A DNA stretch of 64,000 nucleotides from a virus (lineage: Duplodnaviria > Caudoviricetes), in the IMG/VR virus record IMGVR_UViG_3300027983_002388; one strand, 5' to 3'. Both the position numbers and the translations under genes were made by a program. Positions within the stretch are counted from its first letter, which is position 1, and each line of letters begins with the position of its first letter. This document shows, piece by piece, positions 38 through 19,785 of the stretch. The notes under the pieces are model-generated. The model was not told the DNA's origin. It worked only from the letters and a program-made list of their open reading frames with translations, and made no database searches.

Positions 38-123
38 GGGTTCTGTTCCTCATGCCTGACTGTAAATCAGGTGACAAAAAATTTTGAGGCGGCTGTCGAG
101 GGGTTCAACTCCCTCAGAACCCA
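38..123 (+). ncRNA. Atypical tRNA-Tyr(GTA)-like RNA lacking a normal D-arm
   Basis: Acceptor GGGTTCTG/CAGAACCC, anticodon arm CCTGA-CTGTAAA-TCAGG, T-loop GTTCAACTC; only about 10 nt between acceptor and anticodon stems. Confidence 0.7.
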
Positions 124-162
124 CTTCGGCTTTACAGCCGAATTTGATGGTGATAGAATCAT

Positions 163-239
163 GCCCAGGTGATGCAACCTTCGGTAGACATCCGATACTC
201 AAAATATCGGTTTTACGGGTTCGAGTCCCGTCCTGGGTA
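163..239 (+). tRNA. tRNA-Leu(CAA), short variable arm
   Basis: GCCCAGG/CCTGGGT-A, CCGATA-CTCAAAA-TATCGG, ACGGG-TTCGAGT-CCCGT; variable region only TTTT. Confidence 0.9.
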
Positions 240-255
240 CTTTGCGGAGAATGTG

Positions 256-786
256 ATGGAAGAGAAATGCACGGAGTTGACTCTCGAACAATGTGAATTT
301 GCTTGCAAGATGGTTTGCCAGTGGATGAATATTTGCGAGGACAATAAGCGTGGATCAAGTTCGGCTGATGTCGATCATTCTGCCCTTTTGCGAAGGATGT
401 TGATGGGTGGGACGGTTCATAAAAATCCTCCACCAAAAAGATTCAGTTATCCTTGTTGGGGATTGGTTGAACAAGAAGAGATCGAAATCCAAGACATGCA
501 CGAATATGACATAGACATTGAAGGCATGAAAGGAACTGTGGTTGTCGATCAACATCGTGAATACGAATGGGTGGATAAAGAAAATAAAATCATCAAACAC
601 ACACGATTGGGCATTGAGTATCAATATTCCGAACGTGAAGTAACACCAGATGCCAGACGTTTACGAAAGGGTTTGAACCCCGAAGACCATAAATACACTG
701 GTAAATTTTTGAAGAGATTGAATGATCCACCAACAGGAAAAGAAGAAGTGTGGAAAATGCAAGTGAGTGGCTTTTGTTCAGGATGA
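256..786 (+). CDS. Hypothetical phage protein
   Basis: ORF 169..786; start moved to ATG 256 (GGAGA SD) because the upstream part overlaps a tRNA. Confidence 0.7.
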   Translation: MEEKCTELTLEQCEFACKMVCQWMNICEDNKRGSSSADVDHSALLRRMLMGGTVHKNPPPKRFSYPCWGLVEQEEIEIQDMHEYDIDIEGMKGTVVVDQHREYEWVDKENKIIKHTRLGIEYQYSEREVTPDARRLRKGLNPEDHKYTGKFLKRLNDPPTGKEEVWKMQVSGFCSG

Positions 787-897
787 ACATCAGGCTGACC
801 CCGGTAGCGTAACTCGCCAATGATCGGTAAGTAACATCATCAAGGAAGATGAAACCACTAAGGAATAAAATGATGAAAAATAATCACGAAAGTTTGG

Positions 898-940
898 GTA
901 GCGTCTTTTAAGTGCATTCCGCACTTAGGAGAATCGCTAC
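898..940 (+). promoter_or_regulatory. Hairpin covering the SD of ORF 941, overlapped by a 13-aa uORF (870..911)
   Basis: GTAGCG/CGCTAC and TAAGTGC/GCACTTA stems enclose AGGAGA; uORF MMKNNHESLGSVF stops in the 5' arm. Confidence 0.45.
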
Positions 941-1393
941 ATGGCAAAAAAAAGATGGTTCTCGGCATTCCTTCGGTATCCGAGAACAACACAAGAACTA
1001 AGAGCAAACCAAGACCGCAATGATCCCTATGTCCGTGGAAAGAGACGAAACCTTCCCACGGCATGGGACGATCGGTTTGTTCGCAAGCAAAAATCATGGA
1101 AATATCTCGGTCGAGATCATCAATACCGAGAACAAGGTCATGGTTACGAGTGGCATGAATTCCAATACTCGTGGCGTGATACTGAACGGAGAATGATCGC
1201 CAGAACCATCATGGACTGGCTGGAACGACTTGGATGCTTCTACGAAACGATTCGTGGCGGCTTCCGTTGGTTTGGACCAGCATGGTGGATCAAAGGTCAT
1301 TGTCGCTGTTGTTATACACAATTGATTTCTGACACCCAATCCGAAGAGTTCGGAGATTGGTGTCCAAACCCGGACTGTTGCTTCCTTAACTAA
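941..1393 (+). CDS. Hypothetical phage protein
   Basis: ORF with AGGAGA SD; basic N-terminus, C-terminal CxxC pairs. Confidence 0.75.
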   Translation: MAKKRWFSAFLRYPRTTQELRANQDRNDPYVRGKRRNLPTAWDDRFVRKQKSWKYLGRDHQYREQGHGYEWHEFQYSWRDTERRMIARTIMDWLERLGCFYETIRGGFRWFGPAWWIKGHCRCCYTQLISDTQSEEFGDWCPNPDCCFLN

Positions 1394-1470
1394 GAGAAAA
1401 ACCATGAACAAATTCACTCAAATCCTTGGACTCATCAAACCTATTACCCAAACCCATTATGGAGGGAACG

Positions 1471-1770
1471 ATGAGAAGGTGGAACGAGGATTACAAGATC
1501 ACTCTGCGTGAGTGGAAAAAGCACCGTCGCTCTCATGTTGAGAGTAACAAAAGCTGGATAAATCGCATCGGAGTCAGCGCCTATGTCGTTGATTGTGAGC
1601 GTGATGAACAAAAAGGTCGATTCCGTAAGAAAGACGCTTTCGATTGTGGCAATACGCAGTGCAGAATTTGTCACAGCGACAAGTATCCCAAGCGGGAAAA
1701 ACACGAACACGAATTGAAGTCCGATGTGGACTTCAAAGAACAACTCAAAGAGTTGCGTGGTGAAGAGTAA
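1471..1770 (+). CDS. Hypothetical basic phage protein (DCGNTQCRICH motif)
   Basis: ORF; GGAGG SD before ATG 1471. Confidence 0.7.
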   Translation: MRRWNEDYKITLREWKKHRRSHVESNKSWINRIGVSAYVVDCERDEQKGRFRKKDAFDCGNTQCRICHSDKYPKREKHEHELKSDVDFKEQLKELRGEE

Positions 1771-1804
1771 AAGAAGACGAAGGTTTGAAAAAGCCTTCGT
1801 TTGA

Positions 1805-1881
1805 GTCCAAGTAGGCAAACCTCCGGCAAAGCCGCCAGATCGAGAGTCTGGTGTTTGTGGGTTCGACTCCCACCTTGGACA
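1805..1881 (+). tRNA. tRNA-Leu(GAG), short variable arm, C at position 33
   Basis: GTCCAAG/CTTGGAC-A, CCAGA-TCGAGAG-TCTGG, GTGGG-TTCGACT-CCCAC. Confidence 0.85.
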
Positions 1882-1958
1882 TTTTCTAAATCCTGTTCAA
1901 CAATCAACGAGAATTGGGAGTGTCAGACAATGCAGTTAGAAAACGGCAGTTAGAAAAC

Positions 1959-2032
1959 GGCTCAGTAGGCAATCGGCAGACCACCCAGGCTTAAACCCAG
2001 GGATGCTGTGAGTTCAAATCTCACCTGAGCCA
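1959..2032 (+). tRNA. tRNA-Leu(TAA), short variable arm
   Basis: GGCTCAG/CTGAGCC-A, loop CTTAAAC, GTGAG-TTCAAAT-CTCAC; A-A mismatch in anticodon stem. Confidence 0.85.
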
Positions 2033-2047
2033 CTTGATTTTTAATAC

Positions 2048-2129
2048 GGCTTTGTGGTGAAATTGGCAAACGCACAGCACTCAAAATGCTGCGTCGAAAG
2101 ACTTGTGGGTTCGAGTCCCACCAAAGCCA
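2048..2129 (+). tRNA. tRNA-Leu(CAA), canonical long variable arm
   Basis: GGCTTTG/CAAAGCC-A, CAGCA-CTCAAAA-TGCTG, variable arm GTC-GAAA-GAC. Confidence 0.95.
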
Positions 2130-2247
2130 CTGTTTCGATTTCTGGATCTGGCTCTTACTCGTTGTGAGTAGAAACACCTTTTTTTGGTGGGGTTATAGAA
2201 GTCAAACCTCCAACGGTGATCTCGTAAAGATCACAGGAGAAAGTAAA

Positions 2248-3420
2248 GTGAAGAAAGTCCACATCAATGTCGGAACGATTGGTCACATTGACCACGGGAA
2301 GACGACTCTGACAGCAGCAATTCTCGCTGTTCAGTCCGAGAAGGGTTACGCAAAAAAGAAAGCATACGGCGACATCGCCAAGGGCGGCACCGTTCGTGAC
2401 GTTACCAAAACGGTAACGATCACCACGTCGCACGTTGAGTATGAGACGGATACCCGTCACTATGCTCACATTGACTGCCCCGGTCACGCCGACTATGTAA
2501 AAAATATGATTACCGGGGCTGCTCAAATGGACGGCGCTGTATTGCTCGTCAATGCAGCAGACGGTCCTATGCCTCAGACGAAAGAGCATATTCTGCTCGC
2601 TCGTCAGGTGGGCGTGCCGGATATTGTAGTATTCCTCAATAAGTGCGATCTTGTCAAAGACGAAGAATTGCTGGAACTGGTCGAGATGGAAACAAGAGAC
2701 TTGCTGACGAAGTATGGCTTCGACGGCGAGAAGACTCCGTTTATCCGTGGAGCAGCAAAACCTGCCTTGGATAATCCTGCTGATCCCGCAGCAAGCAAGT
2801 GTATTGTAGAATTGTTGGCGGCTCTGGATTCTTATATTCCTGACCCCAGCCGTTCTATCGACCGTCCCTTCTTGATGCCCGTCGAAGGTGTTCACAATAT
2901 CGAAGGTCGTGGCTGCGTAGTCACGGGCAAGATCGAGCAAGGAACCATCACGGTCGGAACCAAAGTTGAAATCCTTGGGTTGACTGATATTCTGGAGTCA
3001 GTTGTCACCAGCGTCGAGGCTTTCAATAAGCAACTGGAATATGGAGAAGCTGGACAGAATGTCGGTTTGCTGCTGAGAGGCATCAAGGCCGATCAAGTTC
3101 AGCGTGGACAGGTTGTGGCACAACCACGAAGCATCAAGCCTCACACCAAGTTCAAGAGCGAAATTTACGTCTTGGGCAAGGATGAGGGCGGGCGTCACAC
3201 CCCGATCTTCAATGGTTACAAGCCACAGTTCTTCTTCAGAACTACCAACGTCACCGGCCTTGTCCAAATGCCGGAAGGAATTGAGTTGGTCATGCCGGGC
3301 GAGAACACTTGCCTGTTTATCACCCTGGATAAGCCGATTGCTATCGAAAAAGGTAGTCACTTCGCCATTCGTGAGGGTGGTATGACAGTCGGTTCTGGCG
3401 TCGTGACGGAATTGCTGTAA
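2248..3420 (+). CDS. tuf: Elongation factor Tu (Planctomycetes-type effector region)
   Basis: [40 protein letters not shown]; GTG start after AGGAGA. Confidence 0.97.
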
Positions 3421-3447
3421 AACGGCTGTAAAACGGCTGTAAAGCAA

Positions 3448-3485
3448 AGCGAAAGCGTGGTATAATCAAATACCACGCTTTCGCT
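3448..3485 (+). promoter_or_regulatory. 15-bp perfect inverted repeat with an extended -10 box (TGnTATAAT) at the stem-loop junction
   Basis: AGCGAAAGCGTGGTA-TAATCAAA-TACCACGCTTTCGCT. Confidence 0.55.
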
Positions 3486-3528
3486 GCAACGGTTAAGAAA
3501 TTTCCATTGGCACGCACCAGGCATAAAC

Positions 3529-3810
3529 ATGCGTCGAGAAACAACCATCATCGGCATGATAACAATCATTTTCATGATTGTCGTTTTCTTCATTTCAAGT
3601 GCCACTAATTCCAGCGATCAAGCCAAAATACAAAAATGGGCTAGTGACAACAAATATGTCATAGTCACATCTGAACGGTGTTTTTTCTACTCCGGCCCTT
3701 ATTGGACGACTAAAAACACTCGGATTTACAAAGTCGATTTGGAAAATAACAAAACCCATTGGTTCCGATTCGGACTTTGGGGAACCGACACCGACATCGA
3801 GGAATATTGA
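3529..3810 (+). CDS. Hypothetical membrane-anchored protein
   Basis: ORF with N-terminal hydrophobic helix. Confidence 0.7.
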   Translation: MRRETTIIGMITIIFMIVVFFISSATNSSDQAKIQKWASDNKYVIVTSERCFFYSGPYWTTKNTRIYKVDLENNKTHWFRFGLWGTDTDIEEY

Positions 3811-4181
3811 TGCGAAGACAAAGACCCACCGCTTGTGAAATCCGAAAACAAATGAACACTGCCGATAGCACCCACCAAAGGTGTGTGTCGGATTATTCAT
3901 TTGGTAAATTCAAAATGAAACCGGGAGAAGTAATTCTTACTTGGCACGACAAAGAAAACGACAAGCACAATAGAATGGTATTGACCCACCGTTCAACTGG
4001 CGTCCAAATATTTGGATATATCAAGCCAGGATACAACCCATCCAAAAAAGAGATCAGCGAAATGCGAAAGCATTTTATCAAAAAGAATTTGTCTTTACTT
4101 GAAAGCATGACGAGGCGACACCTTAGAGCGTGCATGGCAAGTCAGTATGGACCCATTCCAAAAGGACAGTTCGATGAGTAG
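3810..4181 (+). CDS. Hypothetical protein
   Basis: ORF coupled by TGATG overlap. Confidence 0.6.
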   Translation: MRRQRPTACEIRKQMNTADSTHQRCVSDYSFGKFKMKPGEVILTWHDKENDKHNRMVLTHRSTGVQIFGYIKPGYNPSKKEISEMRKHFIKKNLSLLESMTRRHLRACMASQYGPIPKGQFDE

Positions 4182-4407
4182 AAATCAAATCAAACGATGT
4201 GCCTGTGGGCTACCGCTTCATTATCGAGACAAAACCAAAGAAGCGGAAGTTCAAGGAGAGATCGACAAGCTCGGAGAATGGATACCATTCAGCATTGGTC
4301 AAAGTCGATATTTGGTGCAAAGACACTACAAAGAACTGCACGGCCTTAATCCAAATGAAGTTCCTGCTTTAATGAAGCAAGGAATTATCAGAATAAACAA
4401 GGATTAA
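4174..4407 (+). CDS. Hypothetical protein (CACG motif)
   Basis: ORF overlapping the upstream stop. Confidence 0.65.
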   Translation: MSRNQIKRCACGLPLHYRDKTKEAEVQGEIDKLGEWIPFSIGQSRYLVQRHYKELHGLNPNEVPALMKQGIIRINKD

Positions 4408-4597
4408 AGTCGATATGAACACCTACTCCAACGAACTCATGCAAAAACTGACAAATCAGTTTTAGGCGACATTTTACAATTGGTGCCAAACATTTGGAAG
4501 TTGCTAGTTTTTCGACCTTTTCATGAATTGGCAATAGCATCAATCACAGACAATGTTGCATCATCAGATATTGTCGCTAGAGCTTTGGGCAATTTTT

Positions 4598-4909
4598 TTA
4601 GCTCCCAAGATTTTCTTTGTTGGTTGGCAATAATTCAGACGCCCAATTATACATTTCAGATAATAAATCTCCAAATTGTTTGGCTCGACTTTGATTACAA
4701 AAATGTAAAGGATAATTGCTATGAGGAAAATGCCAATTAGAACAACCATCCCACTTAATGTGTCCAATTAACAATGGATCTTCATCAGAAACTTCTTGAT
4801 TTCCTTGGTAAATAAAAAAATTAACAATATGTCCATTTTTATGCAAGTCAGCCAACACCACATAAGGATCTTCTGATCCTTGAAAGAACTCTCTTAATGT
4901 ATTCGACAT
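4598..4909 (-). CDS. Hypothetical protein
   Basis: ORF track, 103 aa. Confidence 0.55.
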   Translation of the reverse strand: MSNTLREFFQGSEDPYVVLADLHKNGHIVNFFIYQGNQEVSDEDPLLIGHIKWDGCSNWHFPHSNYPLHFCNQSRAKQFGDLLSEMYNWASELLPTNKENLGS

Positions 4910-4947
4910 TTCATTGTCTTTCTAAATTTATTTTATTGTCTAATGGC

Positions 4948-5208
4948 TCATACAACAATTCTTACGTTTCCGGGTGGCTTTCTAGGAGCCATCTCTCCCT
5001 GTCCCAAAATCATTACAGAGTGTCCAACTTGTGTTAGGTGAAACTCTAAAGTCACATCCTCAACCATCCAAAGTCCCATGCCAGTTCCATTACAGTGTGG
5101 ACAAGGTCCATCAACCAAACCACTGCAATTACAATTTCCACAAGATTTCTTTACGAAAAAATCCATATCCATCTCCGCCACAAGTGTAACAAAAATCACA
5201 TGGCACAA
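4948..5208 (-). CDS. Small Zn-finger protein (DnaJ-like CxxCxGxG)
   Basis: CGNCNCSG and CPHCNGTG motifs. Confidence 0.55.
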   Translation of the reverse strand: MCHVIFVTLVAEMDMDFFVKKSCGNCNCSGLVDGPCPHCNGTGMGLWMVEDVTLEFHLTQVGHSVMILGQGEMAPRKPPGNVRIVV

Positions 5209-5481
5209 AATCGCTCAGTGGAAGAAAGAATGAACATTTTGGCTCTTATCCCAATTGGTGGGATTGCCGGTATGCCGCCATATACGCCACATGCAGGATC
5301 AGGAAAAATCGCCTGTGCTGGCTGTGGTATAGCTTGTTGGATCGGTCCTCGTCAAACCGTGATGAAGCTCGAAAAGCCTGAACTCCCGGCATTGTGCATG
5401 TTGTGTGCGTGCAAAGAAATACAAAAACAAAAAGAATCAGACGAAGAAGTAACTGCATCCGTGATTCCATTAGGTGATTGA
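5200..5481 (+). CDS. Small Zn-binding hypothetical protein
   Basis: CAGC and CMLC motifs. Confidence 0.6.
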   Translation: MAQNRSVEERMNILALIPIGGIAGMPPYTPHAGSGKIACAGCGIACWIGPRQTVMKLEKPELPALCMLCACKEIQKQKESDEEVTASVIPLGD

Positions 5482-5483
5482 AT

Positions 5484-6134
5484 ATGCAAAGAGATTATAG
5501 TTGGAAGCCATCCTGGAGTCCTATTCACAAAGAATGTGACGTTCACCCTCATGTCCCTGCGGAACGTGCTGATTTATTTGAGGTCGCCGATGGCGGCTCT
5601 ACTGAATATGAAGTCTTAAATTGGCTTCATTCCACAATCCGAGTATTGAAGCCACAACTGGTTCTTGAAACTGGTGCGTGGGAGGGTTTCGGAACAACCG
5701 CCCTAGCTCATGCTTGCAAACTCAATGGATTCGGCAAGGTGCATTCTCTTGAAGTTCTGCCGCCACAATGCGTGCGACTTCAGACGGTTCTTGAAGAAGA
5801 ACACTTGCTTAAATGGGTTGAAGTGCATTGCGTAGATTCGCTTGAATTCTTGCAACAATCTAATATTATCTTCGATATTGGATTCTTTGATAGCCTGACC
5901 GAGATCAGGCCCATCGAATGCGAGATAATGCTCAACAAAGGCACGTTGAGAAACCTTGCTGTCTTCCACGACACATCGCCTCATCGGTCTGAATCCGCTC
6001 CTGATTGGACCAGCACAGAAACTCAAAACACATACAGAGAAAAGGTCTTGGCCTTAGCCAAACATCCCCGATGTACTGGCTACTATGATTCCCCACTATC
6101 CAGAGGATTCATGGCCTTGTTCTTAAAAGGCTAA
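5484..6134 (+). CDS. Class I SAM-dependent methyltransferase (Methyltransf_24-like)
   Basis: [12 protein letters not shown] motif I, FFDS, VFHDT. Confidence 0.8.
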
Positions 6135-6135
6135 C

Positions 6136-6473
6136 ATGAAAAACGTAGTTGTAATGTTCCCATATCCATCGGGTGCCGGTTTACACTTGGGGCATTACTA
6201 TAATTATGCCATTATCGACAGCTATTGTCGATTTCTGCGATATGAGGGCGAAGAAGTCTTTCAGCCTTTTGGATATGACGCATTCGGACTGCCTGCCGAG
6301 ATCAAGGCTTGAAGAATTCAGTACGAAATTATTTGTTCTTTTGGAAAGTGAACAAGGTGGTCAGCACATTCATGACCTTCTATAACGACAACAAAGACAA
6401 AAAAGTCTCGCCCGCCAACGCCAAAGAGATTGTCCAGTTGCTTCAAAATTTTGCACCTGGATTTAATCTTTGA
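6136..6473 (+). pseudogene. leuS: Leucyl-tRNA synthetase relic: N-terminal HIGH region joined out of frame to the C-terminal anticodon-domain helices
   Basis: 6136..6312 reads [14 protein letters not shown]...[12 protein letters not shown]; a different frame from 6300 to 6473 reads ...KVNKVVSTFMTFYN...EIVQLLQNFAPGFNL*. Not in the ORF track. Confidence 0.85.
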
Positions 6474-7189
6474 AAATATCGTTCTGCACAACTTGTATGG
6501 GCAGGGTTCATCATCTAATGAGAACCCTGCCCATAAATATTCATGTCGCTCCAGATTGCGAATTTGTGTTGCTTAACTATGGCAGCAAAGATGGAATGCA
6601 CGAGTGGGTCCGAGACAATATGCGTCCTTGGATAAATCGAGGAACCATCAAGTATTATAGAACTCAGCTTCCTGAATACTTCGTGGCGACACATGCCAAA
6701 AACATTGCACATCGCCAAGCGACCGGCGATATTCTTTGCAATTTAGACGCAGACAATTTCTTGATTGACGGCTTTGTTGAATTGGTTAAAAAGACCATGA
6801 GCGACAAACAAAGCATTATGACTGCTCCTATATTTGATATGTTCAATATGTCGGGCAGTTGCGGAAAGATAGCAGTTCATCGAGAGCATTTCTATAGCGT
6901 AAATGGATACAACGAAGACATCAATTTGGGATGGGGGTGGGATGATATTGATTTTGAATTACGTGCAGCCATGCACAACAAATTGAAATACGCTCAAACT
7001 CCCGTGAAGTTTTGCCGAGTAATAGACCACGACGAATCAGATCGAGTCAAGAACTTTCGCACCAAAAACTTGAAGGATTCCCAACGGACAAATGGGGAAC
7101 TGTTGGAAACGGTGAAAAATACTAGAAATTACGTTGTCAACAAAAACAGAGAGTGGGGAGTTGCATTAGATTTATCCAGTGATATATAA
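6470..7189 (+). CDS. Glycosyltransferase (GT2/GT7-like)
   Basis: KISFCTTC, NLDADNF DxD motif, GYNEDINLGWGWDDIDF. Confidence 0.85.
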   Translation: MKISFCTTCMGRVHHLMRTLPINIHVAPDCEFVLLNYGSKDGMHEWVRDNMRPWINRGTIKYYRTQLPEYFVATHAKNIAHRQATGDILCNLDADNFLIDGFVELVKKTMSDKQSIMTAPIFDMFNMSGSCGKIAVHREHFYSVNGYNEDINLGWGWDDIDFELRAAMHNKLKYAQTPVKFCRVIDHDESDRVKNFRTKNLKDSQRTNGELLETVKNTRNYVVNKNREWGVALDLSSDI

Positions 7190-7192
7190 GAC

Positions 7193-7417: not shown

Positions 7418-7420
7418 GGT

Positions 7421-8370: not shown

Positions 8371-8450
8371 TCCAAACCGCTATAGAAAGCATTGGCTACA
8401 GTAAATCGGGTGATTTAGGGAAAGGTACGTCCTTTCCTTTGGGGAAACAA

Positions 8451-8555
8451 AGACAGCCAGGATGTTGGCCTAGAAGTAGCCAACATTCAAAGAGTAGGGT
8501 TACACAGGGACTTCCTGTTAACGGACCCTTTTGGTGTAATAACACACTGGCCGAG
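8451..8555 (+). ncRNA. Stand-alone mimic of the 23S rRNA GTPase-associated centre (H42-H44, L11-binding domain) with a 38-nt insertion; transcript may span about 8390..8636
   Basis: AGACAGCCAGGATGTTGGCCTAGAAGTAGCCAACATTCAAAGAGT [insert] GTGTAATAACACACTGGCCGAG aligns to 23S nt 1046-1112 (E. coli numbering, from memory) with compensatory changes. Confidence 0.88.
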
Positions 8556-8593
8556 CCACCCAACACTCGACACTGGCAATGCTGGTGCCTGGA

Positions 8594-8636
8594 GAGCATG
8601 TCGCCGACGAAGGCTTAGGCGACATGCTCATTTTTT
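8594..8636 (+). terminator. Intrinsic terminator
   Basis: GAGCATGTCGCC/GGCGACATGCTC 12-bp stem followed by ATTTTTT. Confidence 0.8.
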
Positions 8637-8651
8637 GAAAAGAAAGATGAA

Positions 8652-8837: not shown

Positions 8838-8919
8838 GGCCCTGTGGTGGAATTGGAATACACATGGGACTTAAAATCCCACGCCGAAAGGATTGCGGGT
8901 TCGAGTCCCGCCAGGGCTA
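8838..8919 (+). tRNA. tRNA-Leu(TAA), canonical long variable arm
   Basis: GGCCCTG/CAGGGCT-A, TGGGA-CTTAAAA-TCCCA, GCGGG-TTCGAGT-CCCGC. Confidence 0.95.
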
Positions 8920-8922
8920 CGT

Positions 8923-8952: not shown

Positions 8953-9033
8953 GGCCGAGTGGTGGAATGGCATACACGATGGTTTTAGGAACCATTGCCG
9001 CAAGGCTTGCAGGTTCAAGTCCTGTCTCGGTCA
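8953..9033 (+). tRNA. tRNA-Leu(TAG), canonical long variable arm
   Basis: GGCCGAG/CTCGGTC-A, ATGGT-TTTAGGA-ACCAT, variable arm GCC-GCAA-GGC. Confidence 0.95.
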
Positions 9034-9061
9034 CTAATGAGGAATGAGGAATGAGGATACG

Positions 9062-12250: not shown

Positions 12251-12472
12251 ATGGCAGTTGAAACAGATATTACAAAGCGTTGGGAACAAGGGATAGATCA
12301 CCATCCCAAAAGCATCGCTTTGTTCAAAAAACTAGCAGAAATCGACTTCAAATTCGGTGGAGATTTCTTCGACTGGTCATCAGGTGGCGATGGAGACAAT
12401 GGCGAACATTTAATGTACGAAATGGACATTATGTTCGAGAAAGAAGATGCTGAAATAGGAGCTTCATCATGA
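12251..12472 (+). CDS. Hypothetical protein
   Basis: ORF; GGDGDNGE motif. Confidence 0.65.
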   Translation: MAVETDITKRWEQGIDHHPKSIALFKKLAEIDFKFGGDFFDWSSGGDGDNGEHLMYEMDIMFEKEDAEIGASS

Positions 12473-13614
12473 AGCGACACACAACCGATCTTAGGCATGA
12501 TTGGAAAAAGACCATTGAAGGTCAGGGAATGTTATTTCATACATTTGATGGCGATATTTATTGGGACGAGTCAGCATACTACGAGTTAAACAGTCCTGAA
12601 GTAGACACCATAGAGGCGGCTACTTACGAACTGAATGATCGTTGTCTTGAAGCTGTTCAACACGTCATCGACAATGATCTGTTAGATGCTTTCTTGATCC
12701 CGCCCGAATTCCATCAGTTTATCCAAGACAGTTGGGAGAGAGACGAACACACCATTTATGGTCGGTTTGACTTTTCCTATGACGGAAAAACCCAACCAAA
12801 GATGTTGGAGTTCAATGCCGACACGCCTACCGGCCTGATAGAAGCTGCTGTTACCCAATGGTATTGGGCAAAAGACAAGTTTCCAAATCGGAACCAATTC
12901 AACTCAATACACGAGCGGCTAATTAAGGTTTGGAAAGAACTGAAGTCCGTGACGCCAGGAGTATTGTATTTTACGGCACTCGCTGGCAATCTCGAAGATT
13001 ACATGAACGTCAATTATCTTCGAGACACTGCCATCCAAGCCGGGTGGGATACTGAATATATTGACATTGAAAACATCGGATGGAACGAAGGTCGCCGTAC
13101 ATTCACCGACCTGAACGAAAATCCAATACAGACATGCTTCAAGCTGTATCCTTGGGAATGGATGCAGACCGACGAGTTTGGCAGAAAACTATTCCTCAAG
13201 ACCACCAAATGGCTTGAGGCTCCGTGGAAGGCAATCCTTAGCAACAAGGCCATTCTGCCTATATTGTGGGAGTTGTTTCCCGATCATCCAAACTTATTAG
13301 AAGCATCGTTTCAACCAATTCGCACAAAACCTTACGTTCAGAAGCCAATTCTGAGTCGTGAGGGAGCTAATGTGCAAATATTTGAGCATGGCGAATTGCT
13401 GCTTAAAACTGATGGTCCTTACGATGGACCATGTGTATATCAACAACTATGGGAACTTCCCAACTTTGATGGCAATCACGCCTGCATTGGTAGTTGGTTG
13501 GTCAACGGCTGGGCTTGTGGAATAGGCATTCGAGAAGACAAAACCATTGTAACGGGGAACCTGAGTCGGTTCGTACCGCACATTTTCGGTGTTCGACCAA
13601 AATACGGGAGTTAA
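12469..13614 (+). CDS. Glutathionylspermidine synthase-like ATP-grasp ligase (YgiC/YjfC family)
   Basis: GRFDF, LEFNADTPTGLIE, FKLYPWEW, SNKAIL, KPILSREGANV. Confidence 0.93.
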   Translation: MKRHTTDLRHDWKKTIEGQGMLFHTFDGDIYWDESAYYELNSPEVDTIEAATYELNDRCLEAVQHVIDNDLLDAFLIPPEFHQFIQDSWERDEHTIYGRFDFSYDGKTQPKMLEFNADTPTGLIEAAVTQWYWAKDKFPNRNQFNSIHERLIKVWKELKSVTPGVLYFTALAGNLEDYMNVNYLRDTAIQAGWDTEYIDIENIGWNEGRRTFTDLNENPIQTCFKLYPWEWMQTDEFGRKLFLKTTKWLEAPWKAILSNKAILPILWELFPDHPNLLEASFQPIRTKPYVQKPILSREGANVQIFEHGELLLKTDGPYDGPCVYQQLWELPNFDGNHACIGSWLVNGWACGIGIREDKTIVTGNLSRFVPHIFGVRPKYGS

Positions 13615-13618
13615 GATC

Positions 13619-14872
13619 ATGGCTGCAAACAAAAAGATTCACATCATCGGTGGTGGAACGGTCGCACAAATTGGCCCGCACTTGGCTTTGTGCGCCCCAG
13701 CTTATGGTGGCACTGCAAAGAGACTACATCACTTGTGCTGGCAGCAGTGCCACACTCTGGACTCTGAACTCCATCTCACCAAGATGGCTGGCGGAAATGA
13801 ACTGGAAACCAATGCTGATATTGCAAAATTGGTGAACGAAATCGTTGCCGATCCAGCATCAAAGATCGTGTTTTTGAATGCTGCTCTGGTTGATTTTCAA
13901 TACGATGGTGTTGCCGACAAATACGGCGAGCGAATTAAATCTCGTGAAACTCCACACCTTCAGTTGAACTTTGTTCCAGCGGATAAAGTCGTTGGCAATA
14001 TCCGCAAGAATCGTAAGGATATTTTTGCCGTCGCATTCAAAACGACTTCAGGAGCAACGCCAGAAGAACAATACATCGCTGGCTTAAATCTCCTGAAAGA
14101 GTCCAGCCTGAATTTGGTTTTTGCCAACGATGTGAAAACTCGATTGAACATGGTCATTACGCCTGAAGAGGCTCGTTATCACGAAACCACAGATCGTGAT
14201 GAAGCCCTGGAAGGCTTGGTCGAAATGACTTTGCTTCGATCTCATTTGACCTTCACTAGATCAACCGTCGTAGACGGTCAACCTGTGCCTTGGGACTCGG
14301 AATTGGTGCCTGAAGCACTCCGCACGGTTGTCGATCACTGCATCAGTGCTGGTGCCTACAAGCCATTCCGAGGGGCGACTGTGGGGCATTTTGCTTGTAA
14401 GGTAAACGACACAACTTTCCTTACAAGTATTCGCAAGTCGAACTTCAACGATCTACCCAATACTGGTCTGGTTCGTATTGTGACTGATGGGCCAGACAGC
14501 GTGATCGCTTATGGTGCCAAACCGAGTGTCGGTGGGCAAAGTCAACGTATTGTGTTCCACGATCATCAGGAATACGACTGCATTGTTCACTTCCATTGCC
14601 CGATTAAACCGGGATCAGAAGTACCAGAAGTCTCACAGCGGGAATACGAGTGTGGGTCGCATCAATGTGGAGAGAACACCAGCAAAGGACTGAAGCAGTT
14701 CGGAAACTTGAGCGCCGTTTATCTTCAAGAGCATGGACCCAATATTGTTTTCAATCGCTCGATCAATCCGCAAGAAGTGATCGACTTCATTGATGCCAAC
14801 TTCGATCTGAGCGATAAGACTGGCGGTTATGTGAGCTTGGGGCAAATCCTCACGACTCCTCACGACTCCTGA
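13619..14872 (+). CDS. CoaB/DFP-like domain fused to a class II aldolase-like domain
   Basis: IIGGGT...APAYGG, NAALVDF, VAFKTT, LVFAND; C-terminal VHFH and HGP motifs. Confidence 0.7.
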   Translation: MAANKKIHIIGGGTVAQIGPHLALCAPAYGGTAKRLHHLCWQQCHTLDSELHLTKMAGGNELETNADIAKLVNEIVADPASKIVFLNAALVDFQYDGVADKYGERIKSRETPHLQLNFVPADKVVGNIRKNRKDIFAVAFKTTSGATPEEQYIAGLNLLKESSLNLVFANDVKTRLNMVITPEEARYHETTDRDEALEGLVEMTLLRSHLTFTRSTVVDGQPVPWDSELVPEALRTVVDHCISAGAYKPFRGATVGHFACKVNDTTFLTSIRKSNFNDLPNTGLVRIVTDGPDSVIAYGAKPSVGGQSQRIVFHDHQEYDCIVHFHCPIKPGSEVPEVSQREYECGSHQCGENTSKGLKQFGNLSAVYLQEHGPNIVFNRSINPQEVIDFIDANFDLSDKTGGYVSLGQILTTPHDS

Positions 14873-14908
14873 CACTGTGGATTTTCTACGCTTTTCCTAT
14901 GAGGGGCA

Positions 14909-15661
14909 ATGATGAAGAAGGTTGTGCTTTTTGCTTGTTTGTTAATGATTGGATGTAGCAAATCCACCGAAACAGTTGCCGAGGCACAAGTGTCGGTACA
15001 GACAGAGCCGACAATGCTTCAAAGGTTTTTTGGAGGCCCCACCAAAGAAGAGATTGCCACACAGCAAGAACTATTGGCTCAACAGCAAGAGTTGCACGCT
15101 CAACAACTCAAGGCCAAACAAGAGTTGCAGGCTCAACAGCTTAAAGACGGAGACGCATTGGTTGCTAAGTGGGCTGATAAGATTCAAGAAACAGCAACTA
15201 AAGACAGCTTCGGATATGAGCGAATGGAAGGTTTGACGGAAGCTGATCCCTGGGGTCAGCAAATTAAGGTGAACTATCGCCAAGAATGGTTCAAAGAAAT
15301 TGCAACTATTCAATCTGCTGGACCTGATGGTGTTTTTGGAAATACCGATGACTTGATTAGAACAAGATCAGCCAAGAATCCCGCTGGAATCATTGAGGGA
15401 ATTTCTTCATTAGGTTGGGTTGTATTGGCTTGGTTGTTTTGTGGTGGATTGGCATTGGCATTCTCGTCGGGAATTGGTCATCGCCGAGTCACTAAAGGCA
15501 AATCAAAAAATCATCGTCGTCCACTTGTGTTCGGCGTGACAACTGTATTATTTGCTCCTGTGGCGGTGTTGATTTACGGATTGCAATTCATTGGCGGGGC
15601 TTTGGGTGCAAACGGTGAATTCTTCGATGGATTTGACTTCGACTTCGACATTGACCTATGA
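14909..15661 (+). CDS. Lipoprotein/membrane protein with a GspG pseudopilin-like motif
   Basis: LLMIGC lipobox; DPWGQ...SAGPDGVFGNTDDL; two C-terminal TM helices. Confidence 0.65.
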   Translation: MMKKVVLFACLLMIGCSKSTETVAEAQVSVQTEPTMLQRFFGGPTKEEIATQQELLAQQQELHAQQLKAKQELQAQQLKDGDALVAKWADKIQETATKDSFGYERMEGLTEADPWGQQIKVNYRQEWFKEIATIQSAGPDGVFGNTDDLIRTRSAKNPAGIIEGISSLGWVVLAWLFCGGLALAFSSGIGHRRVTKGKSKNHRRPLVFGVTTVLFAPVAVLIYGLQFIGGALGANGEFFDGFDFDFDIDL

Positions 15662-15827
15662 GGATGAATATGAGCAACTGTCCACAAGAAGAACGTTACC
15701 AGGATATTTTACAAAAGAATACCTCCACGATGAACTTGCTCAATAACATTGAGCGGTCACAAAGGCGACGAAGATTCAACGCCTGGGTCAAACGATGGTG
15801 GTATAAACTAACCTTCCGAGGTTAAAA

Positions 15828-16370
15828 ATGAGCGAAAAAAAGTCAACAAGGGATGATTTTCGTAATGCCGTATTCAAACGGGATGGCTATGCCTGCGCTA
15901 TGTGCGGGCATAAACCAGAAAACGTCAATGAATTAGACGCCCACCACATTACAGATAGAACCTACATGCCATTCGGTGGATATTGTGCCGCCAATGGCAT
16001 TTCGCTTTGTACAGATCGCTGCAAGAAGGAATCTTGGCTGGGTTCTTCGCTCGATTGTCACCAGAAGGCAGAACACCTTCACGCTACCGGAATTGAATTT
16101 CCGGGATATGCTCCAGTGAACCTTTATGCTAGAATCAAGTCTTCCTATAAACAGGCTTATTCGCACAGTCTCAAGCTAGAGATCACAGCCAATAGAGCCG
16201 ACGCAATGATGGCCGTCATTGACGTAATCTCCAAAAAAGAATTGGAGGTATGTCTTCGCTTGTGTGAAAACACCAGCCCGGAGACATGGGAGTTAACTTG
16301 TGACGAACTAAGTGAGTGGGAACCCCTCAATAGAACTTACGGAAAAGGTCGCTATGTCCCTGACAAATGA
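15828..16370 (+). CDS. HNH endonuclease-like protein
   Basis: VFKRDGYACAMCG, LDAHHI, NGISLC. Confidence 0.75.
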   Translation: MSEKKSTRDDFRNAVFKRDGYACAMCGHKPENVNELDAHHITDRTYMPFGGYCAANGISLCTDRCKKESWLGSSLDCHQKAEHLHATGIEFPGYAPVNLYARIKSSYKQAYSHSLKLEITANRADAMMAVIDVISKKELEVCLRLCENTSPETWELTCDELSEWEPLNRTYGKGRYVPDK

Positions 16371-17445
16371 ACAGAAAGATGTCCTGAAGCTCTTAGTGGG
16401 CAATATGGACAACCACCAGCAGCAAACTCTTGGTGGATATGCGGGGACAGGAAAATCAACAATTATTCGAGTGATGCTCGACGCCCTTCAACGAAAAGGG
16501 CGATATTTTTGCGCAGCCGCATTTACCGGCAAAGCCACGAACGTATTGCGCAAAAAGGGAATGAATGCCAATACGATTCACAGCACGATATACCAGCCGT
16601 ACAAAGACGAGCATGGCGAAACCGTGTGGTTCTTAGCTGACAAAACTGACTTAGTGTCCAAGGGCATTGACGGCTTCATTATTGATGAAGCGTCTATGGT
16701 GAGCAAGGAAATACACGACGATCTTATGTCGTTTGGCCTGCCAATTATCTATGTTGGCGATCACGGTCAACTTGAGCCTATTGGCACCAAATTCAACCTT
16801 ATGCAAAAGCCAATGTATAAGCTGGAGACGGTTCATCGAAATGCTGGTGAGATTGCATATTTTGCCGAGCATCTTCGCAAGGGCAATTCTGCCAATTCCT
16901 TCATGGGAGCAACGAAGGTTCAGATTGTTCAAGAAAAAGCAATTGAGGATCGACACCTTGCTGCCGTCGATCAAATCATCTGCGCCTTCAATAAGACTCG
17001 TGTGCAACTCAACGAGCGTGTGCGTATCGAGAAAAAGATTCAATATACATTCATTGCCAAAGGCGAGAAGGTCATTTGTTTAAGGAACAATAAGAAGCAG
17101 GGTTTGTTTAATGGGATGCAAGGCGTTGTCCAGAAAATCCACAAGAACGACCGCTTTGACTTTATATCGGATGGCAACTTCTTCGAGAAGGTCCATTACG
17201 ATCCTGACCAGTTTGGAAAAGACTCAAATAAGTTTGAGTTTTCCCAGGCAGCAAATCCATTCGATTACGCATACGCCATCACTTGCCATAAGGCTCAAGG
17301 CGACGAATGGGGCAATGTGATCGTATACGAACAGCGATGCGATAAATGGGATAACGTGCGATGGTCTTATACAGCAGCCAGTCGTGCAAAAAACGGACTG
17401 ATCTGGATCGCTGTAGAAGAGTTCCGACCCAACTATCTAGGGTAA
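16354..17445 (+). CDS. SF1B helicase (Dda/RecD-like)
   Basis: GYAGTGKS, IIDEASM, YVGDHGQL, TCHKAQG, YTAASRA. Confidence 0.9.
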   Translation: MSLTNEQKDVLKLLVGNMDNHQQQTLGGYAGTGKSTIIRVMLDALQRKGRYFCAAAFTGKATNVLRKKGMNANTIHSTIYQPYKDEHGETVWFLADKTDLVSKGIDGFIIDEASMVSKEIHDDLMSFGLPIIYVGDHGQLEPIGTKFNLMQKPMYKLETVHRNAGEIAYFAEHLRKGNSANSFMGATKVQIVQEKAIEDRHLAAVDQIICAFNKTRVQLNERVRIEKKIQYTFIAKGEKVICLRNNKKQGLFNGMQGVVQKIHKNDRFDFISDGNFFEKVHYDPDQFGKDSNKFEFSQAANPFDYAYAITCHKAQGDEWGNVIVYEQRCDKWDNVRWSYTAASRAKNGLIWIAVEEFRPNYLG

Positions 17446-17577
17446 TGTTAAAAGAACCAATCAGTAAATGTGCATCGCATTGGGCTGTGGGCGTACTCGA
17501 CACCAATCGTGCCGAATATTTCAAAGCCAAGAATTTGGAGATTAGTTTACAGATCGCCGAAATCGTGGTATCATCTA

Positions 17578-17606
17578 TCGCAAAAATCAAGCTCCACGAG
17601 TATGAT
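17578..17606 (+). promoter_or_regulatory. Sigma70-like promoter for RNase P RNA
   Basis: TCGCAA-N17-TATGAT, 4 nt upstream of P1. Confidence 0.5.
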
Positions 17607-17610
17607 ATAA

Positions 17611-17891
17611 GGGGATGCAACTTGTCGAGTCGTCGCTGTAATCCCCTCAAGGGGTTGTAGAGGAAGTTCTGGACACTACTGCTTTTAAGGTAGGAGCGAA
17701 AACCTCGAAAGGGGCTAATAGTGTTTGAACTACCGAGGGTGCAAGCCATACAGACCAAAATCTCGTAAGAGGTACGCCGGTGAGCAGGGCGTCATCATGG
17801 TCGGGTCGGTGCAGTCCGCAAGGACCGGGGGCAACTCCGAGATAAATGACGACATAGAACAGAATCCAGGCTATGGATAAGTTGCATCTCC
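17611..17891 (+). ncRNA. rnpB: RNase P RNA with a strongly reduced specificity domain
   Basis: P1 GATGCAACTTGTC/GATAAGTTGCATC, P2, P3, GAGGAAGTTCTGGA...ACAGAATCCAGGCT P4, P5 CAC/GTG, P6 CTGCT/AGCAG, P7 GGTAG/CTACC, P15-P18, AGATAAATGACGAC. Confidence 0.92.
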
Positions 17892-17915
17892 TTTTCAAGT
17901 CAAAAAGGAGATGTC

Positions 17916-18707
17916 ATGCGTGCCGAAATTGTCCACGTTACGGACCACGCTTTGTTGCGATGGAAAGAACGTGCGTCGAAAACAGGTGAAGTCAACGTAG
18001 AAGAAATCGTTCAGGCTGTAAAAGAATCCAAGGTCATCAAAAAAAACGAACCTTTGCCTTACCCGATGCCTCGTTTAGATGGATCAGTTTACAGCTTCAA
18101 TGCCGGAGTGTTGTTCATTCTCGAATCAGTAACCATTGATGAATATCGACTCGTCACAGTTATCGCCGACGAGCCGACCTATCAACGGATTGCTCGACCG
18201 CCGAAGAAACAACTTAATCCTCGAAAGAGACAGAAATACGAGGAAGTTCAAAAGGTGCAAATCGACATTCCTTGCTTTGAAAGTTTCATCGAAGAACGTC
18301 AATGGTTGACCGACGAGAAACGAAAACTCGAAAGTGAACTGGCAACAACAGCGAAGAAATCTTCCACTCGCAAAGAAATATTGAAGGTGTGGGGCGAGAT
18401 TGAAGCCCGACTCACCGAGAACAAACCTCAATATCTCGAAGAGCGGAAAAAATCAGGAGACGGATATGTTGACTATGGTTCTCTTCTTTTGCAAATTATC
18501 AGAGAGTTAAAAGAAATACGCTCTGAACAACAGGAATTACGTAACCTAATCGAAGGCTCCAATGGACAACAACCGAGATCACCGAGCAATCGGAAAAAAG
18601 CTAGACCTCTTCATGTTCAGCCCTCTATCGCCGGGTTGTCCGATCTGGCTCCCGAAGGGAGTTGTGCTTTATCAGTCTTTGCTGAACCGCATTCGTCAAC
18701 TCAATGA
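17916..18707 (+). CDS. Hypothetical protein (VTDHALLRWKER motif, coiled coil)
   Basis: ORF with AGGAG SD; 3' end overlaps thrS. Confidence 0.7.
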   Translation: MRAEIVHVTDHALLRWKERASKTGEVNVEEIVQAVKESKVIKKNEPLPYPMPRLDGSVYSFNAGVLFILESVTIDEYRLVTVIADEPTYQRIARPPKKQLNPRKRQKYEEVQKVQIDIPCFESFIEERQWLTDEKRKLESELATTAKKSSTRKEILKVWGEIEARLTENKPQYLEERKKSGDGYVDYGSLLLQIIRELKEIRSEQQELRNLIEGSNGQQPRSPSNRKKARPLHVQPSIAGLSDLAPEGSCALSVFAEPHSSTQ

Positions 18708-19785
18708 AGCCAATGGTTGCCAAGAAGTTCGGACCCCACTTATATGGAAGTCCGAACTTTATGCAACCAGCGGACACCTGGATCACTATGCAAAAAATAT
18801 GTTCTTCGTCAGTGATAAGCCTGCTGGCGAGTCCCACGAAGAAGGACATGAAGATCAGTGCTTAAAACCAATGAATTGTCCTGGGCATATGGAGATATTC
18901 CGCTCGAAACAGTGGAGCTATCGAGACTTGCCTGTTCGATTCGCTGAATATGGTCCTTTACACCGCAATGAAGTTTCTGGTGCCTTGGGTGGGCTAACTC
19001 GCTGTCGTGCATTCTGCCAGGATGACGCCCACATTTTCGTTTCGCCGGACAACCTACAAAGCGAAATCAAACGAATCCTTGTCATGATCGAAAGAGTTTA
19101 CGGATGGTTTGGAATGAAGTTCCGATCCGTACTCAGCACTCGTCCTTATAACTTCATGGGCGAGAAGTTGGTTTGGGATAATGCTGAGGCGAACCTCGAA
19201 GATGCTTTATGCGAAAATGGATTGAAGTTCGAGATTGCCCATAAAGACGGTGCGTTTTATGGTCCAAAAATAGACTTCATTGTGACTGATTCCCTTGGAC
19301 GTGATTGGCAAACAGCAACAATCCAATTGGACTTCCAGTTGCCTCAAAGATTCGGTTGTACCTATACCGACAAGGACGACAAAGAGCAAACTCCAATTGT
19401 CATTCACAGAGCAATATACGGCAGCTTTGAAAGATTCATTGGTGTATTGTTGGAACATACTGACGGGCATCTACCATTATGGTTGGCTCCTGTTGGTGTA
19501 ACCATTGCACCAATCAGCGACAAAGTTGCTGAATACGCTGATGAGATCAAAGAGGTTTTGCTTGCTCATGGAATTCGGTGTGAATGCGATCACTCGAATC
19601 GAACTCTGCAACAGAAGATTGCCATCGGGTACGATAAAAAAGTACCCTACATGGTCATCTTGGGAGAGAAAGAAAAATCCGCAAGAACCGTTACCCTCAA
19701 ACAAATGAGATCAACTGCTGTCGCACAGGAAACCTTATCTTTGGAAGTATTCCTTCCTCAGATGGTCGCACTGGCGAAAGAGTAA
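18562..19785 (+). CDS. thrS: Threonyl-tRNA synthetase, catalytic and anticodon domains only
   Basis: RDHRAIG, LKPMNCPGH, HRNEVSGALGGLTRCR, AFYGPKID, TIQLDF, VIHRAIYGSFERF. Confidence 0.95.
   Translation: MDNNRDHRAIGKKLDLFMFSPLSPGCPIWLPKGVVLYQSLLNRIRQLNEANGCQEVRTPLIWKSELYATSGHLDHYAKNMFFVSDKPAGESHEEGHEDQCLKPMNCPGHMEIFRSKQWSYRDLPVRFAEYGPLHRNEVSGALGGLTRCRAFCQDDAHIFVSPDNLQSEIKRILVMIERVYGWFGMKFRSVLSTRPYNFMGEKLVWDNAEANLEDALCENGLKFEIAHKDGAFYGPKIDFIVTDSLGRDWQTATIQLDFQLPQRFGCTYTDKDDKEQTPIVIHRAIYGSFERFIGVLLEHTDGHLPLWLAPVGVTIAPISDKVAEYADEIKEVLLAHGIRCECDHSNRTLQQKIAIGYDKKVPYMVILGEKEKSARTVTLKQMRSTAVAQETLSLEVFLPQMVALAKE

Follow-up and report, generated by a model that had tools for sequence, protein, structure and literature searches.

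Huge phages are known to carry elongation factor Tu (EF-Tu), host-related aminoacyl-tRNA synthetases (aaRS) and large sets of tRNA genes, with the proposed role of maintaining translation or redirecting it (Al-Shayeb et al. 2020, PMC7162821). Phage translation and repair genes can also serve in counter-defence, as in the case of T4 Pnk-Rnl against PrrC and a T5 tRNA against PARIS (PMC11464382; PMC10264068). We analysed a stretch of 64,000 nucleotides (nt) of the virus record IMGVR_UViG_3300027983_002388 (Duplodnaviria; Caudoviricetes), hereafter the window, whose first 20 kb hold an island of translation-related parts, all on the plus strand: tRNA-Leu genes, EF-Tu, a relic of leucyl-tRNA synthetase (LeuRS), a free-standing RNA resembling the GTPase-associated centre (GAC) of 23S rRNA, a reduced RNase P RNA and threonyl-tRNA synthetase (ThrRS). 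In EF-Tu, aaRS and tRNAs the island is like the repertoires of Al-Shayeb et al.; the main text of that paper, however, contains no mention of RNase P or rRNA, and the island adds both RNA genes as well as Planctomycetota as the likely host lineage. A preliminary description of the window had proposed a single co-selected system that replaces or decoys host translation components attacked during infection. The parts that it named are all present, and they are not chance matches, given their small E-values and the recurrence of both RNAs, with covariation, in relatives. The comparison with relatives nevertheless makes it probable, though by no means assured, that the island is an accretion of separately gained and lost add-ons and not one interdependent system, because EF-Tu, the RNAs and ThrRS are distributed piecemeal.

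The nearest relatives in IMG/VR are contigs of 223, 436 and 533 kb, the longest of which (G004) is rated complete, and because the closest relatives reach 223-533 kb the source of the window is a huge phage. Across these and further relatives all pairwise combinations of presence and absence occur, save ThrRS without RNase P RNA, a qualitative result that draws on many fragments (Table 1); joint gain and loss of the components was not found. RNase P RNA occurs without EF-Tu or GAC-like RNA (L206, G022), EF-Tu without either RNA (G002, G007) and GAC-like RNA without EF-Tu (G016), while ThrRS is missing beside a 97%-identical EF-Tu (L002) and only the window has the LeuRS relic, no counterpart having been found in the flanks of relatives. 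The preliminary description had itself named independent occurrence as evidence against a co-selected system, and independent occurrence is largely what the relatives display.

Table 1. Translation-related parts in the window and in relatives (+, present; -, absent)
Genome or contig	EF-Tu	GAC-like RNA	RNase P RNA	ThrRS	Remark
Window	+	+	+	+	
G001	+	+	+	+	
G004	+	+	+	+	
L002 contig	+	+	+	-	EF-Tu 97% identical
G003	+	+	+	-	
G006	+	+	+	-	
G008/G009	+	-	+	-	
G002	+	-	-	-	60-117 kb flank; neither RNA in 188-kb contig
G007	+	-	-	-	39-52 kb flank
L206	-	-	+		20-kb locus only
G022	-	-	+		class II aaRS of unknown type 9 kb off RNase P RNA
G016	-	divergent	+	-	101 kb

The part of the co-selection claim that held is the arrangement. 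The components lie on one strand and in one region, and even relatives with an EF-Tu of no more than 70-73% identity show the order EF-Tu, GAC-like RNA, RNase P RNA (and ThrRS). Synteny was likewise seen, in that a backbone of genes (w1426, w7421, w10893, w11887, glutathionylspermidine (GSP) synthase, the helicase, w17916 and w20087) is collinear in G001, G004 and G006. This backbone is, however, also present in part in relatives without EF-Tu or GAC-like RNA (L205-L207; the L205 and L207 contigs are G017 and G016 in IMG/VR, and both were searched as the IMG/VR copies). Judged by gene order, the co-location of the parts follows the conserved backbone. One backbone gene, w7421 (P0001; 7421-7840, plus strand, 139 aa), often stands just 5' of the GAC-like RNA; it has homologues in 101 metagenome clusters, on contigs of up to 609 kb, with 16 invariant residues, no Pfam or PHROG match and a low-confidence Atlas model. 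It was considered as a dedicated partner of the GAC-like RNA, which it precedes in four lineages, and was rejected as it is widespread and occurs without the RNA.

Among the individual parts (Table 2), EF-Tu is intact. All three of its Pfam domains (PF00009, PF03144 and PF03143) scored above cut-off (E 2e-56, 6e-33 and 9e-14), and the protein aligned over its full length with a solved EF-Tu (residues 6-393, E 1e-169), with GHxDHGKT, DCPGH and NKCD visible; the GTPase domain, domains 2 and 3 and the G motifs are thus all in place. Its switch I is unusual, the motif of most bacteria being of the ...PEEKARGITI type, and when one genome per prokaryote species was scanned with the back-translated pattern, the phage motif was encountered mainly in Planctomycetota and Verrucomicrobiota. 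The idea that switch I serves as an escape from Lit-type cleavage was rejected, since the motif is of host type and was inherited with the Planctomycetaceae EF-Tu. The phage EF-Tus form a single clade (FastTree, ten phage sequences, support 99; IQ-TREE, a subset with nine, SH-aLRT 98.3), which is nested within Planctomycetaceae sequences in both trees, and on account of this nesting the phylogeny indicates a single acquisition of tuf, from a planctomycete-like host. The window belongs to a clade of huge phages (relatives 436-533 kb) that most likely infect Planctomycetota. A tblastn search of EF-Tu against 50,697 phage records returned only host-like or contaminant tuf of about 61% identity. 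As in the cellular tufB-type operon (tRNA-Thr-Tyr-Gly-Thr-tuf), the phage tuf lies among co-oriented tRNA genes, and in the nearest Planctomycetaceae genomes tuf occurs in a tRNA-Thr-Tyr-Gly-Thr-tuf-tRNA-Trp arrangement. The phage gene is flanked instead by Leu tRNAs (Gly and Glu in G002), and because these flanking tRNAs differ from the host set, simple capture of tuf along with its operon is not the explanation.

The GAC-like RNA is a free-standing look-alike of helices H42 (distal part), H43 and H44 of 23S rRNA. Positions 8442-8561 correspond to positions 1078-1159 of the bacterial large-subunit (LSU) rRNA model (38.6 bits, E 1e-8), with a 49-nt insert. No further rRNA was found around it, the flanks consisting of an open reading frame (ORF), a terminator and tRNA genes, and it does not qualify as LSU rRNA; the true 23S rRNA of a Planctomycetaceae genome matches 2653 positions of the LSU model and has a normal, uninterrupted GAC. 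There was no match to L10_leader or any other Rfam family. With the 58-nt GAC fragment of 23S rRNA (1051-1108) the phage RNA shares the H43/H44 sequence, A1067, A1088 and A1095, and the behaviour of the 1072/1092/1099 triple. Eight distinct members could be aligned, one from the window, five from IMG/VR contigs and two from metagenome contigs. A1067, A1088 and A1095 are invariant among them and the other rRNA-like nucleotides nearly so, whereas loop positions 1069/1070 vary. Over the eight members 19 canonical pairs are 98% paired, as against 23-44% with slid partners, and the covariation score was reached by none of 500 shuffles. All seven other members have C/C/G at the tertiary triple 1072/1092/1099, where the window has U/U/A, and a change of the triple 1072/(1092-1099) from C/C-G to U/U-A is a covariation familiar from rRNA comparisons; this swap argues, at the level of sequence, that the three-dimensional fold is under selection. 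A minimum-free-energy fold recovered the architecture (z = -5.3).

Members of the family differ in the hairpin inserted after position 1088, which ranges from 38 to about 60 nt and attains 215 nt in the divergent RNA of L207. The latter (L207:4657-4932, 23.5 bits) lies on a 101-kb contig without EF-Tu. An intrinsic terminator follows the RNA in five of six aligned members (the window, L001, L002, L004 and L032); in G004 the hairpin lacks the T-run. In G003, G004 and G006 the RNA starts 41-85 nt past a tRNA-Leu gene, a spacing because of which it is probably excised from a tRNA-containing transcript. Scans of IMG/VR and the JGI metagenomes with insert-bearing GAC patterns returned only this clade and two short contigs, the patterns being strict, so that rarity is not implied. 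In the ribosome the GAC is bound by uL11 and uL10-L12 and by thiopeptides. An isolated GAC domain of such sequence folds and binds uL11 in vitro, and by analogy the phage RNA would bind host uL11 and/or the uL10-L12 stalk. Pfam searches of five related records, the complete 533-kb genome among them, found neither L11 nor L10 genes (controls 10-14/14) and no rnpA gene (control positive in 10/14 genomes). Since the phages encode neither RnpA, L11 nor L10, any protein partner of either phage RNA must be the host's.

The RNase P RNA is 273 nt long and matches RF00010 end to end (model positions 1-367) with 53.7 bits (E 4e-14). This is below the gathering score of 100 bits, as are the 47-67 bits of the relatives; a Planctomycetaceae genome has a normal RNase P RNA of 407 nt that scores 292.5 bits. 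The low score reflects the state of the specificity domain, in which 24 nt stand in for about 110 model positions. The specificity domain (P8-P14) reads the T-loop/D-loop of the tRNA, and across the phage family what is left of it is a remnant of about 20-40 nt inside a P7-like stem. The catalytic core, on the other hand, is retained: P4 has its bulged U and is flanked by GAGGAA..., AGAUAAAUGA... and ACAGAA... blocks that align to the model. Helix P4 retains each of its eight pairs in ten of ten sequences, four of the eight with compensatory changes and one position with three pair types (U-A, G-C and A-U), and the bulged U is constant; over the whole RNA, compensatory changes occur at 24 of 41 predicted pairs among the ten homologues. 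A retained catalytic domain with a largely absent specificity domain is also a feature of the Type T RNase P RNA of Thermoproteaceae (PMC3579882), and an engineered type-A catalytic domain of the same domain content cleaves pre-tRNA on its own, at lower efficiency (PMC5839562). In contrast to both, the phage RNA is of bacterial class A by sequence (RF00010 being the best match), phage-encoded, and keeps the short P7-like stem with its remnant. By analogy it would cleave the 5' leaders of pre-tRNA together with host RnpA.

The gene for the RNase P RNA stands constantly directly 3' of a RecD/PIF1-like helicase gene and 5' of a gene of the w17916 family. Directly upstream of the helicase, an ORF resembling HNH endonucleases (15828-16370, plus strand) occupies a spot where L203 has a NUMOD3/TnsA-like gene, and the spot may be a landing site for homing endonucleases. 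The same ORF was considered as an RNA ligase and rejected, its PHROG match resting on the HNH-like N-terminus.

ThrRS (407 aa) matches a solved ThrRS with E 2e-99 and aligns only to E. coli residues 241-613. The class II core is kept, as ...NCPGH..., ...DDAHIF... and ...HRA... are all conserved in the alignment; in the E. coli enzyme such motifs hold the zinc ligands. The TGS and editing domains are lacking, and the homologues are also short (407 aa in G001, 452 aa in G004). Read from its first ATG, the ThrRS ORF shares 146 nt (18562-18707) with the 3' end of the w17916 ORF that precedes it. The LeuRS relic matches residues 37-88 of T. thermophilus LeuRS (E 2e-14). Nothing like a complete LeuRS (HIGH and KMSKS motifs, CP1 editing domain and anticodon-binding domain) is present, and because only 58 N-terminal codons precede the stop, the remnant reads as a pseudogene; a frame-shifted C-terminal remnant is discernible by eye alone. 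The unusual tRNA-Leu genes may formerly have relied on a LeuRS of the phage itself. In G004 an uninterrupted LeuRS-like ORF of 934 aa (G004:C1:37812-38072) lies at a great distance from the island, as do three more class II aaRS genes, so that aaRS genes are scattered over this complete genome. The Pnk-type kinase-phosphatase and the second kinase that the preliminary description had placed further along the window were also recovered.

Six tRNA matches exceeded the Rfam cut-off (RF00005, gathering score 29) and one fell below it; ARAGORN, run alongside, called four tRNAs in the window, all tRNA-Leu, with anticodons UAA, CAA, UAA and UAG. A tRNA array sits just upstream in nearly every lineage, whether or not EF-Tu is present, with the exception of G002, where EF-Tu (L195:673-1840 and surroundings) lies within an array of about 43 genes for other tRNAs, between tRNA-Gly(GCC) and tRNA-Glu. 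At the EF-Tu site the arrays consist of tRNAs for all or some of Leu, Ser, Tyr and Phe (L183, L186-L188, L191, L192, L197-L198 and L203-L207; window 1-9034), that of L204 containing Met and Val tRNAs as well. Leu, Ser and Tyr are the three long-variable-arm tRNA classes of bacteria, and the arrays also contain 'tRNA-Leu' genes of 74-77 nt with short variable arms. Directly beside tRNA-Leu(GAG), the complete 533-kb relative has a 91-nt tRNA with an amber-reading CUA anticodon by ARAGORN (G004 L187:6736-6826), which may be a suppressor tRNA.

The anticodons of the window set have a simple potential explanation. The phage has a GC content of 44%, compared with 60% for the ORFs of the Planctomycetaceae loci nearest the phage EF-Tu. 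By the same crude comparison with candidate hosts, UUA makes up 13% of phage Leu codons against 1%, CUA 8% against 2% and UUG 31% against 16%, and Tyr is used 36 times per 1000 codons against 14. UUA, CUA and UUG are exactly the codons that the four tRNA-Leu genes of the window read. Because these codons are rare in the candidate hosts, codon supply alone would be enough to account for the tRNA-Leu anticodons, and defence need not be invoked.

Table 2. Positions of RNA genes, protein genes and regulatory sites in the window
Feature	Position	Strand	Basis and remarks
Weak tRNA-like element	38..123	+	RF00005 24.3 bits, sub-threshold; no ARAGORN call
Promoter-like TTTACA-17-TAGAAT	131-159		precedes the tRNA-like gene at 163..239
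Non-canonical tRNA-like gene, ambiguous anticodon	163..239	+	RF00005 40.1 bits; ARAGORN only at lowered threshold, with different arm assignment
Non-canonical tRNA-like gene, ambiguous anticodon	1805..1881	+	RF00005 51.2 bits; no anticodon assigned by ARAGORN at lowered threshold
tRNA-Leu(UAA), 75 nt, short variable arm	1959..2033	+	ARAGORN; RF00005 43 bits (1959-2032)
tRNA-Leu(CAA), 83 nt, long variable arm	2048..2130	+	ARAGORN; RF00005 56.2 bits (2048-2129)
EF-Tu gene (tuf), intact, Planctomycetaceae-derived	2248..3420	+	ORF 2086-3420, likely start GTG 2248
LeuRS pseudogene remnant	6136..6312	+	58-codon N-terminus with HIGH-type motif, then stop; translation of 6136-6309
GAC-like RNA, look-alike of 23S rRNA H42 (distal)-H43-H44	8440..8562	+	extra hairpin inserted after position 1088
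Intrinsic terminator closing GAC-like RNA	8594..8637	+	hairpin and T-run; sequence and fold
tRNA-Leu(UAA), long variable arm	8838..8920	+	ARAGORN; RF00005 58 bits (8838-8919)
tRNA-Leu(UAG), long variable arm	8953..9034	+	ARAGORN; RF00005 52.3 bits (8953-9033)
RecD/PIF1-like helicase gene	16312..17445	+	Pfam AAA_30, UvrD_C_2, PIF1; same neighbour in G001, L002 contig, G004, G006, L206, L207
Promoter-like site ahead of RNase P RNA	17546..17574	+	TTTACA-17-TATCAT, upstream TG, 10/12; consensus match only
Reduced class-A RNase P RNA	17617..17889	+	RF00010; full catalytic domain, specificity domain ~40 nt
ThrRS, catalytic and anticodon-binding domains only	18562..19785	+	Pfam tRNA-synt_2b (PF00587), HGTP_anticodon (PF03129)
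P-loop kinase (AAA_33/KTI12-like)	36711..37298	-	Pfam
Polynucleotide kinase-phosphatase (Pnk-type)	37595..38614	-	Pfam AAA_33 and PNK3P/HAD

Under the accretion reading, the scaffold of the island would be the Leu/Ser/Tyr/Phe tRNA array together with the conserved protein backbone. A single transfer from a Planctomycetaceae-like host would have placed tuf among the tRNA genes, a copy of 23S helices 42-44 would have become a terminator-closed small RNA among the tRNA-Leu genes, and a class-A RNase P RNA would have shed nearly its whole specificity domain and been placed directly behind the RecD-like helicase gene. The synthetases would have turned over, leaving an editing-less ThrRS and a decayed LeuRS here and other aaRS elsewhere in relatives. 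As to function, the tRNAs of a 44% GC genome would supply codons that are scarce in a host of about 60% GC, EF-Tu and ThrRS would boost delivery and charging capacity, RNase P RNA with host RnpA would process the numerous phage pre-tRNAs, and the GAC-like RNA, folding as the ribosomal domain does, would capture host uL11 and/or the uL10-L12 stalk. The analysis shows that the parts are present, conserved and (for the RNAs) folded, where EF-Tu came from and that the parts are distributed independently; all of the biochemical activities, and the purpose of the GAC-like RNA, are inferred.

An integrated counter-defence module would be made up of resistant replacements (EF-Tu, tRNAs, RNase P RNA and aaRS), a GAC decoy and Pnk-type repair, co-selected against abortive-infection systems that target EF-Tu, tRNAs, their processing and the ribosomal factor-binding site. 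The order and proximity of EF-Tu, GAC-like RNA and RNase P RNA, kept in five to six lineages, two of which have otherwise replaced their gene content, are in keeping with it, as are the published cases in which phage tRNAs defeat tRNA-cleaving defences (PMC10264068, PMC11464382). As in T4 and T5, the window pairs tRNA genes with a Pnk-type enzyme; unlike those systems, however, it has no RNA ligase among the ORFs scanned to partner the Pnk, and no sign of a tRNA-targeting host defence was seen. The long-arm tRNA classes plus Phe, with extra short-arm Leu-like copies, would fit a nuclease that recognises the long arm, although this is an idea only; the Schlafen nuclease, looked at as a precedent for such specificity, gave no support, the studied bacterial enzyme cleaving Lys, Met and Ala tRNAs. 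With parts that are independently distributed, a switch I of host type with no phage-specific change, aaRS genes dispersed in the complete relative, and a defence against GAC or RNase P neither known nor found in literature searches, we regard such a module as distinctly unlikely. Host takeover by sequestration is rather unlikely too. Here the RNase P RNA would capture limited host RnpA and redirect it to phage precursors, and the GAC-like RNA would soak up newly made uL11/uL10-L12, blocking host ribosome assembly or disturbing the autoregulation of the stalk-protein operon. That RnpA, uL11 and uL10 are not phage-encoded, so that the partners must be the host's, speaks for it, as do the retention of the rRNA domain nucleotides and tertiary triple in the GAC copy and the binding of L10(L12)4 to an rRNA-like mRNA leader in the regulation of rplJL (PMC4538822). 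The variation at positions 1069/1070 and the insertion after 1077 in some members fit it poorly, however, and a phage that invests in tRNAs and EF-Tu would profit little if the supply of ribosomes were crippled at a late stage of a long infection.

The B. subtilis rplJL attenuator (PMC4538822) also bears on a very unlikely alternative, in which the GAC-like RNA is a cis-acting, ribosomal-protein-binding attenuator whose terminator gates tRNA-Leu transcription according to the free stalk-protein pool. Like the phage RNA, that leader is an off-ribosome rRNA mimic followed by a terminator; in contrast to it, the phage RNA is near-identical to rRNA across the domain, carries lineage-specific insertions and does not lie 5' of a ribosomal-protein gene. 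The terminator in most aligned members and the tRNA-Leu genes 200 nt downstream in the window suit an attenuator, but no convincing antiterminator pairing was found, the L004 terminator abuts the closing stem and leaves no room for a switch, the G004 hairpin is without T-run, the downstream genes differ between lineages, and the short distance from a preceding tRNA-Leu gene in G003, G004 and G006 better fits a processed stand-alone RNA. We give hardly any credence to the view that both RNAs are non-functional leftovers carried by the tRNA island, the GAC stretch being a piece of captured rRNA and the RNase P RNA a pseudogene in decay. Although the RNase P RNA falls under the Rfam gathering threshold with one domain lost, and a true relic (LeuRS) lies in the same region, both RNAs persist in lineages as far apart as about 70% EF-Tu identity, with invariant core nucleotides and with compensatory changes in the helices and the base triple; because covariation and the invariant core are preserved in both, neutral decay is contradicted. 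More speculative, and unlikely in our estimate, is that both RNAs make host proteins phage-programmed. The RNase P RNA would then form a relaxed RnpA holoenzyme for short-arm, D-arm-poor tRNAs and the GAC-like RNA with uL11/uL10-L12 an off-ribosome decoy or sponge for some factor or toxin that recognises the ribosomal factor-binding site, which together with EF-Tu and the long-arm-class tRNAs would answer a translation-targeting defence of Planctomycetota.

Several points weigh against the accretion reading as set out above. The host codon table was built from crude ORFs on 8-kb loci of metagenome-assembled genomes that are relatives by EF-Tu only, the host being unproven, and codon supply leaves both the restriction to Leu, Ser, Tyr and Phe and the short-arm Leu-like tRNAs unexplained. 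EF-Tu and RNase P RNA are neighbours at a distance of 12-25 kb, and in G003 and G008 they stay 13-16 kb apart while nearly all protein genes between them have been replaced (tblastn, E 1e-5); this persistent linkage hints at selection beyond inheritance of the backbone. Many of the relatives are contig fragments, 10-50% complete, and absences are soft unless long flanks or nhmmer were used; the RF00010 screen of genomes missed at least one true RNase P RNA (that of G016, which nhmmer finds), so that negatives of this screen are weak. L001 and L032 carry an additional insertion after position 1077 of the GAC-like RNA, a site near the uL11 footprint of L11-RNA structures, and this insertion may be incompatible with uL11 binding. 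DNA of the window occurs at freshwater and estuary sites, but a search of sequencing runs listed no RNA run matching window 8001-18000; the 5-7% word shares of window 8380-9040 in unrelated RNA runs are most likely ordinary 23S words and were not used as evidence.

Beyond the island the window encodes a split family-A DNA polymerase, a DnaB-like helicase, a Gp23-like capsid fragment, collagen-repeat proteins, many glycosyltransferases and polyamine enzymes. Two proteins with collagen-triple-helix repeats lie amid at least five glycosyltransferase genes (28810-30762; 31763-33070 and 33811-35792, both minus strand; 38651-43170). A polyamine/thiol set is interleaved with the translation parts (9569-10537, 12469-13614 and 13589-14872, plus strand; 43709-44521 and 48962-49924, minus strand) and comprises a deacetylase-family protein, a GSP synthase-like protein (E 7e-145), a DFP-like protein, a DDAH-like protein of amidinotransferase fold and a flavin amine oxidase, the GSP synthase being kept in G001, G004 and G006. 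A megablast search of window 1-20000 against the 50,697 phage records gave no match.

Literature searches, of incomplete coverage, found no description of a phage RNase P RNA or GAC mimic, and RNase P-wide papers (2021, 2026) make no mention of phages. The translation parts known from huge phages are proteins and tRNAs, and to these the island adds two RNA parts for which no phage description was found: an RNase P ribozyme subunit naturally cut down to its catalytic domain, and a free GAC copy that preserves the tertiary structure. Each is small and conserved and lends itself to direct tests in vitro. EF-Tu gives an uncultured phage clade, with relatives of up to 436-533 kb, a Planctomycetaceae-like host assignment. 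If, as seems probable, such 'translation modules' are assembled piecemeal, this tempers system-level readings of the gene neighbourhoods of giant phages.

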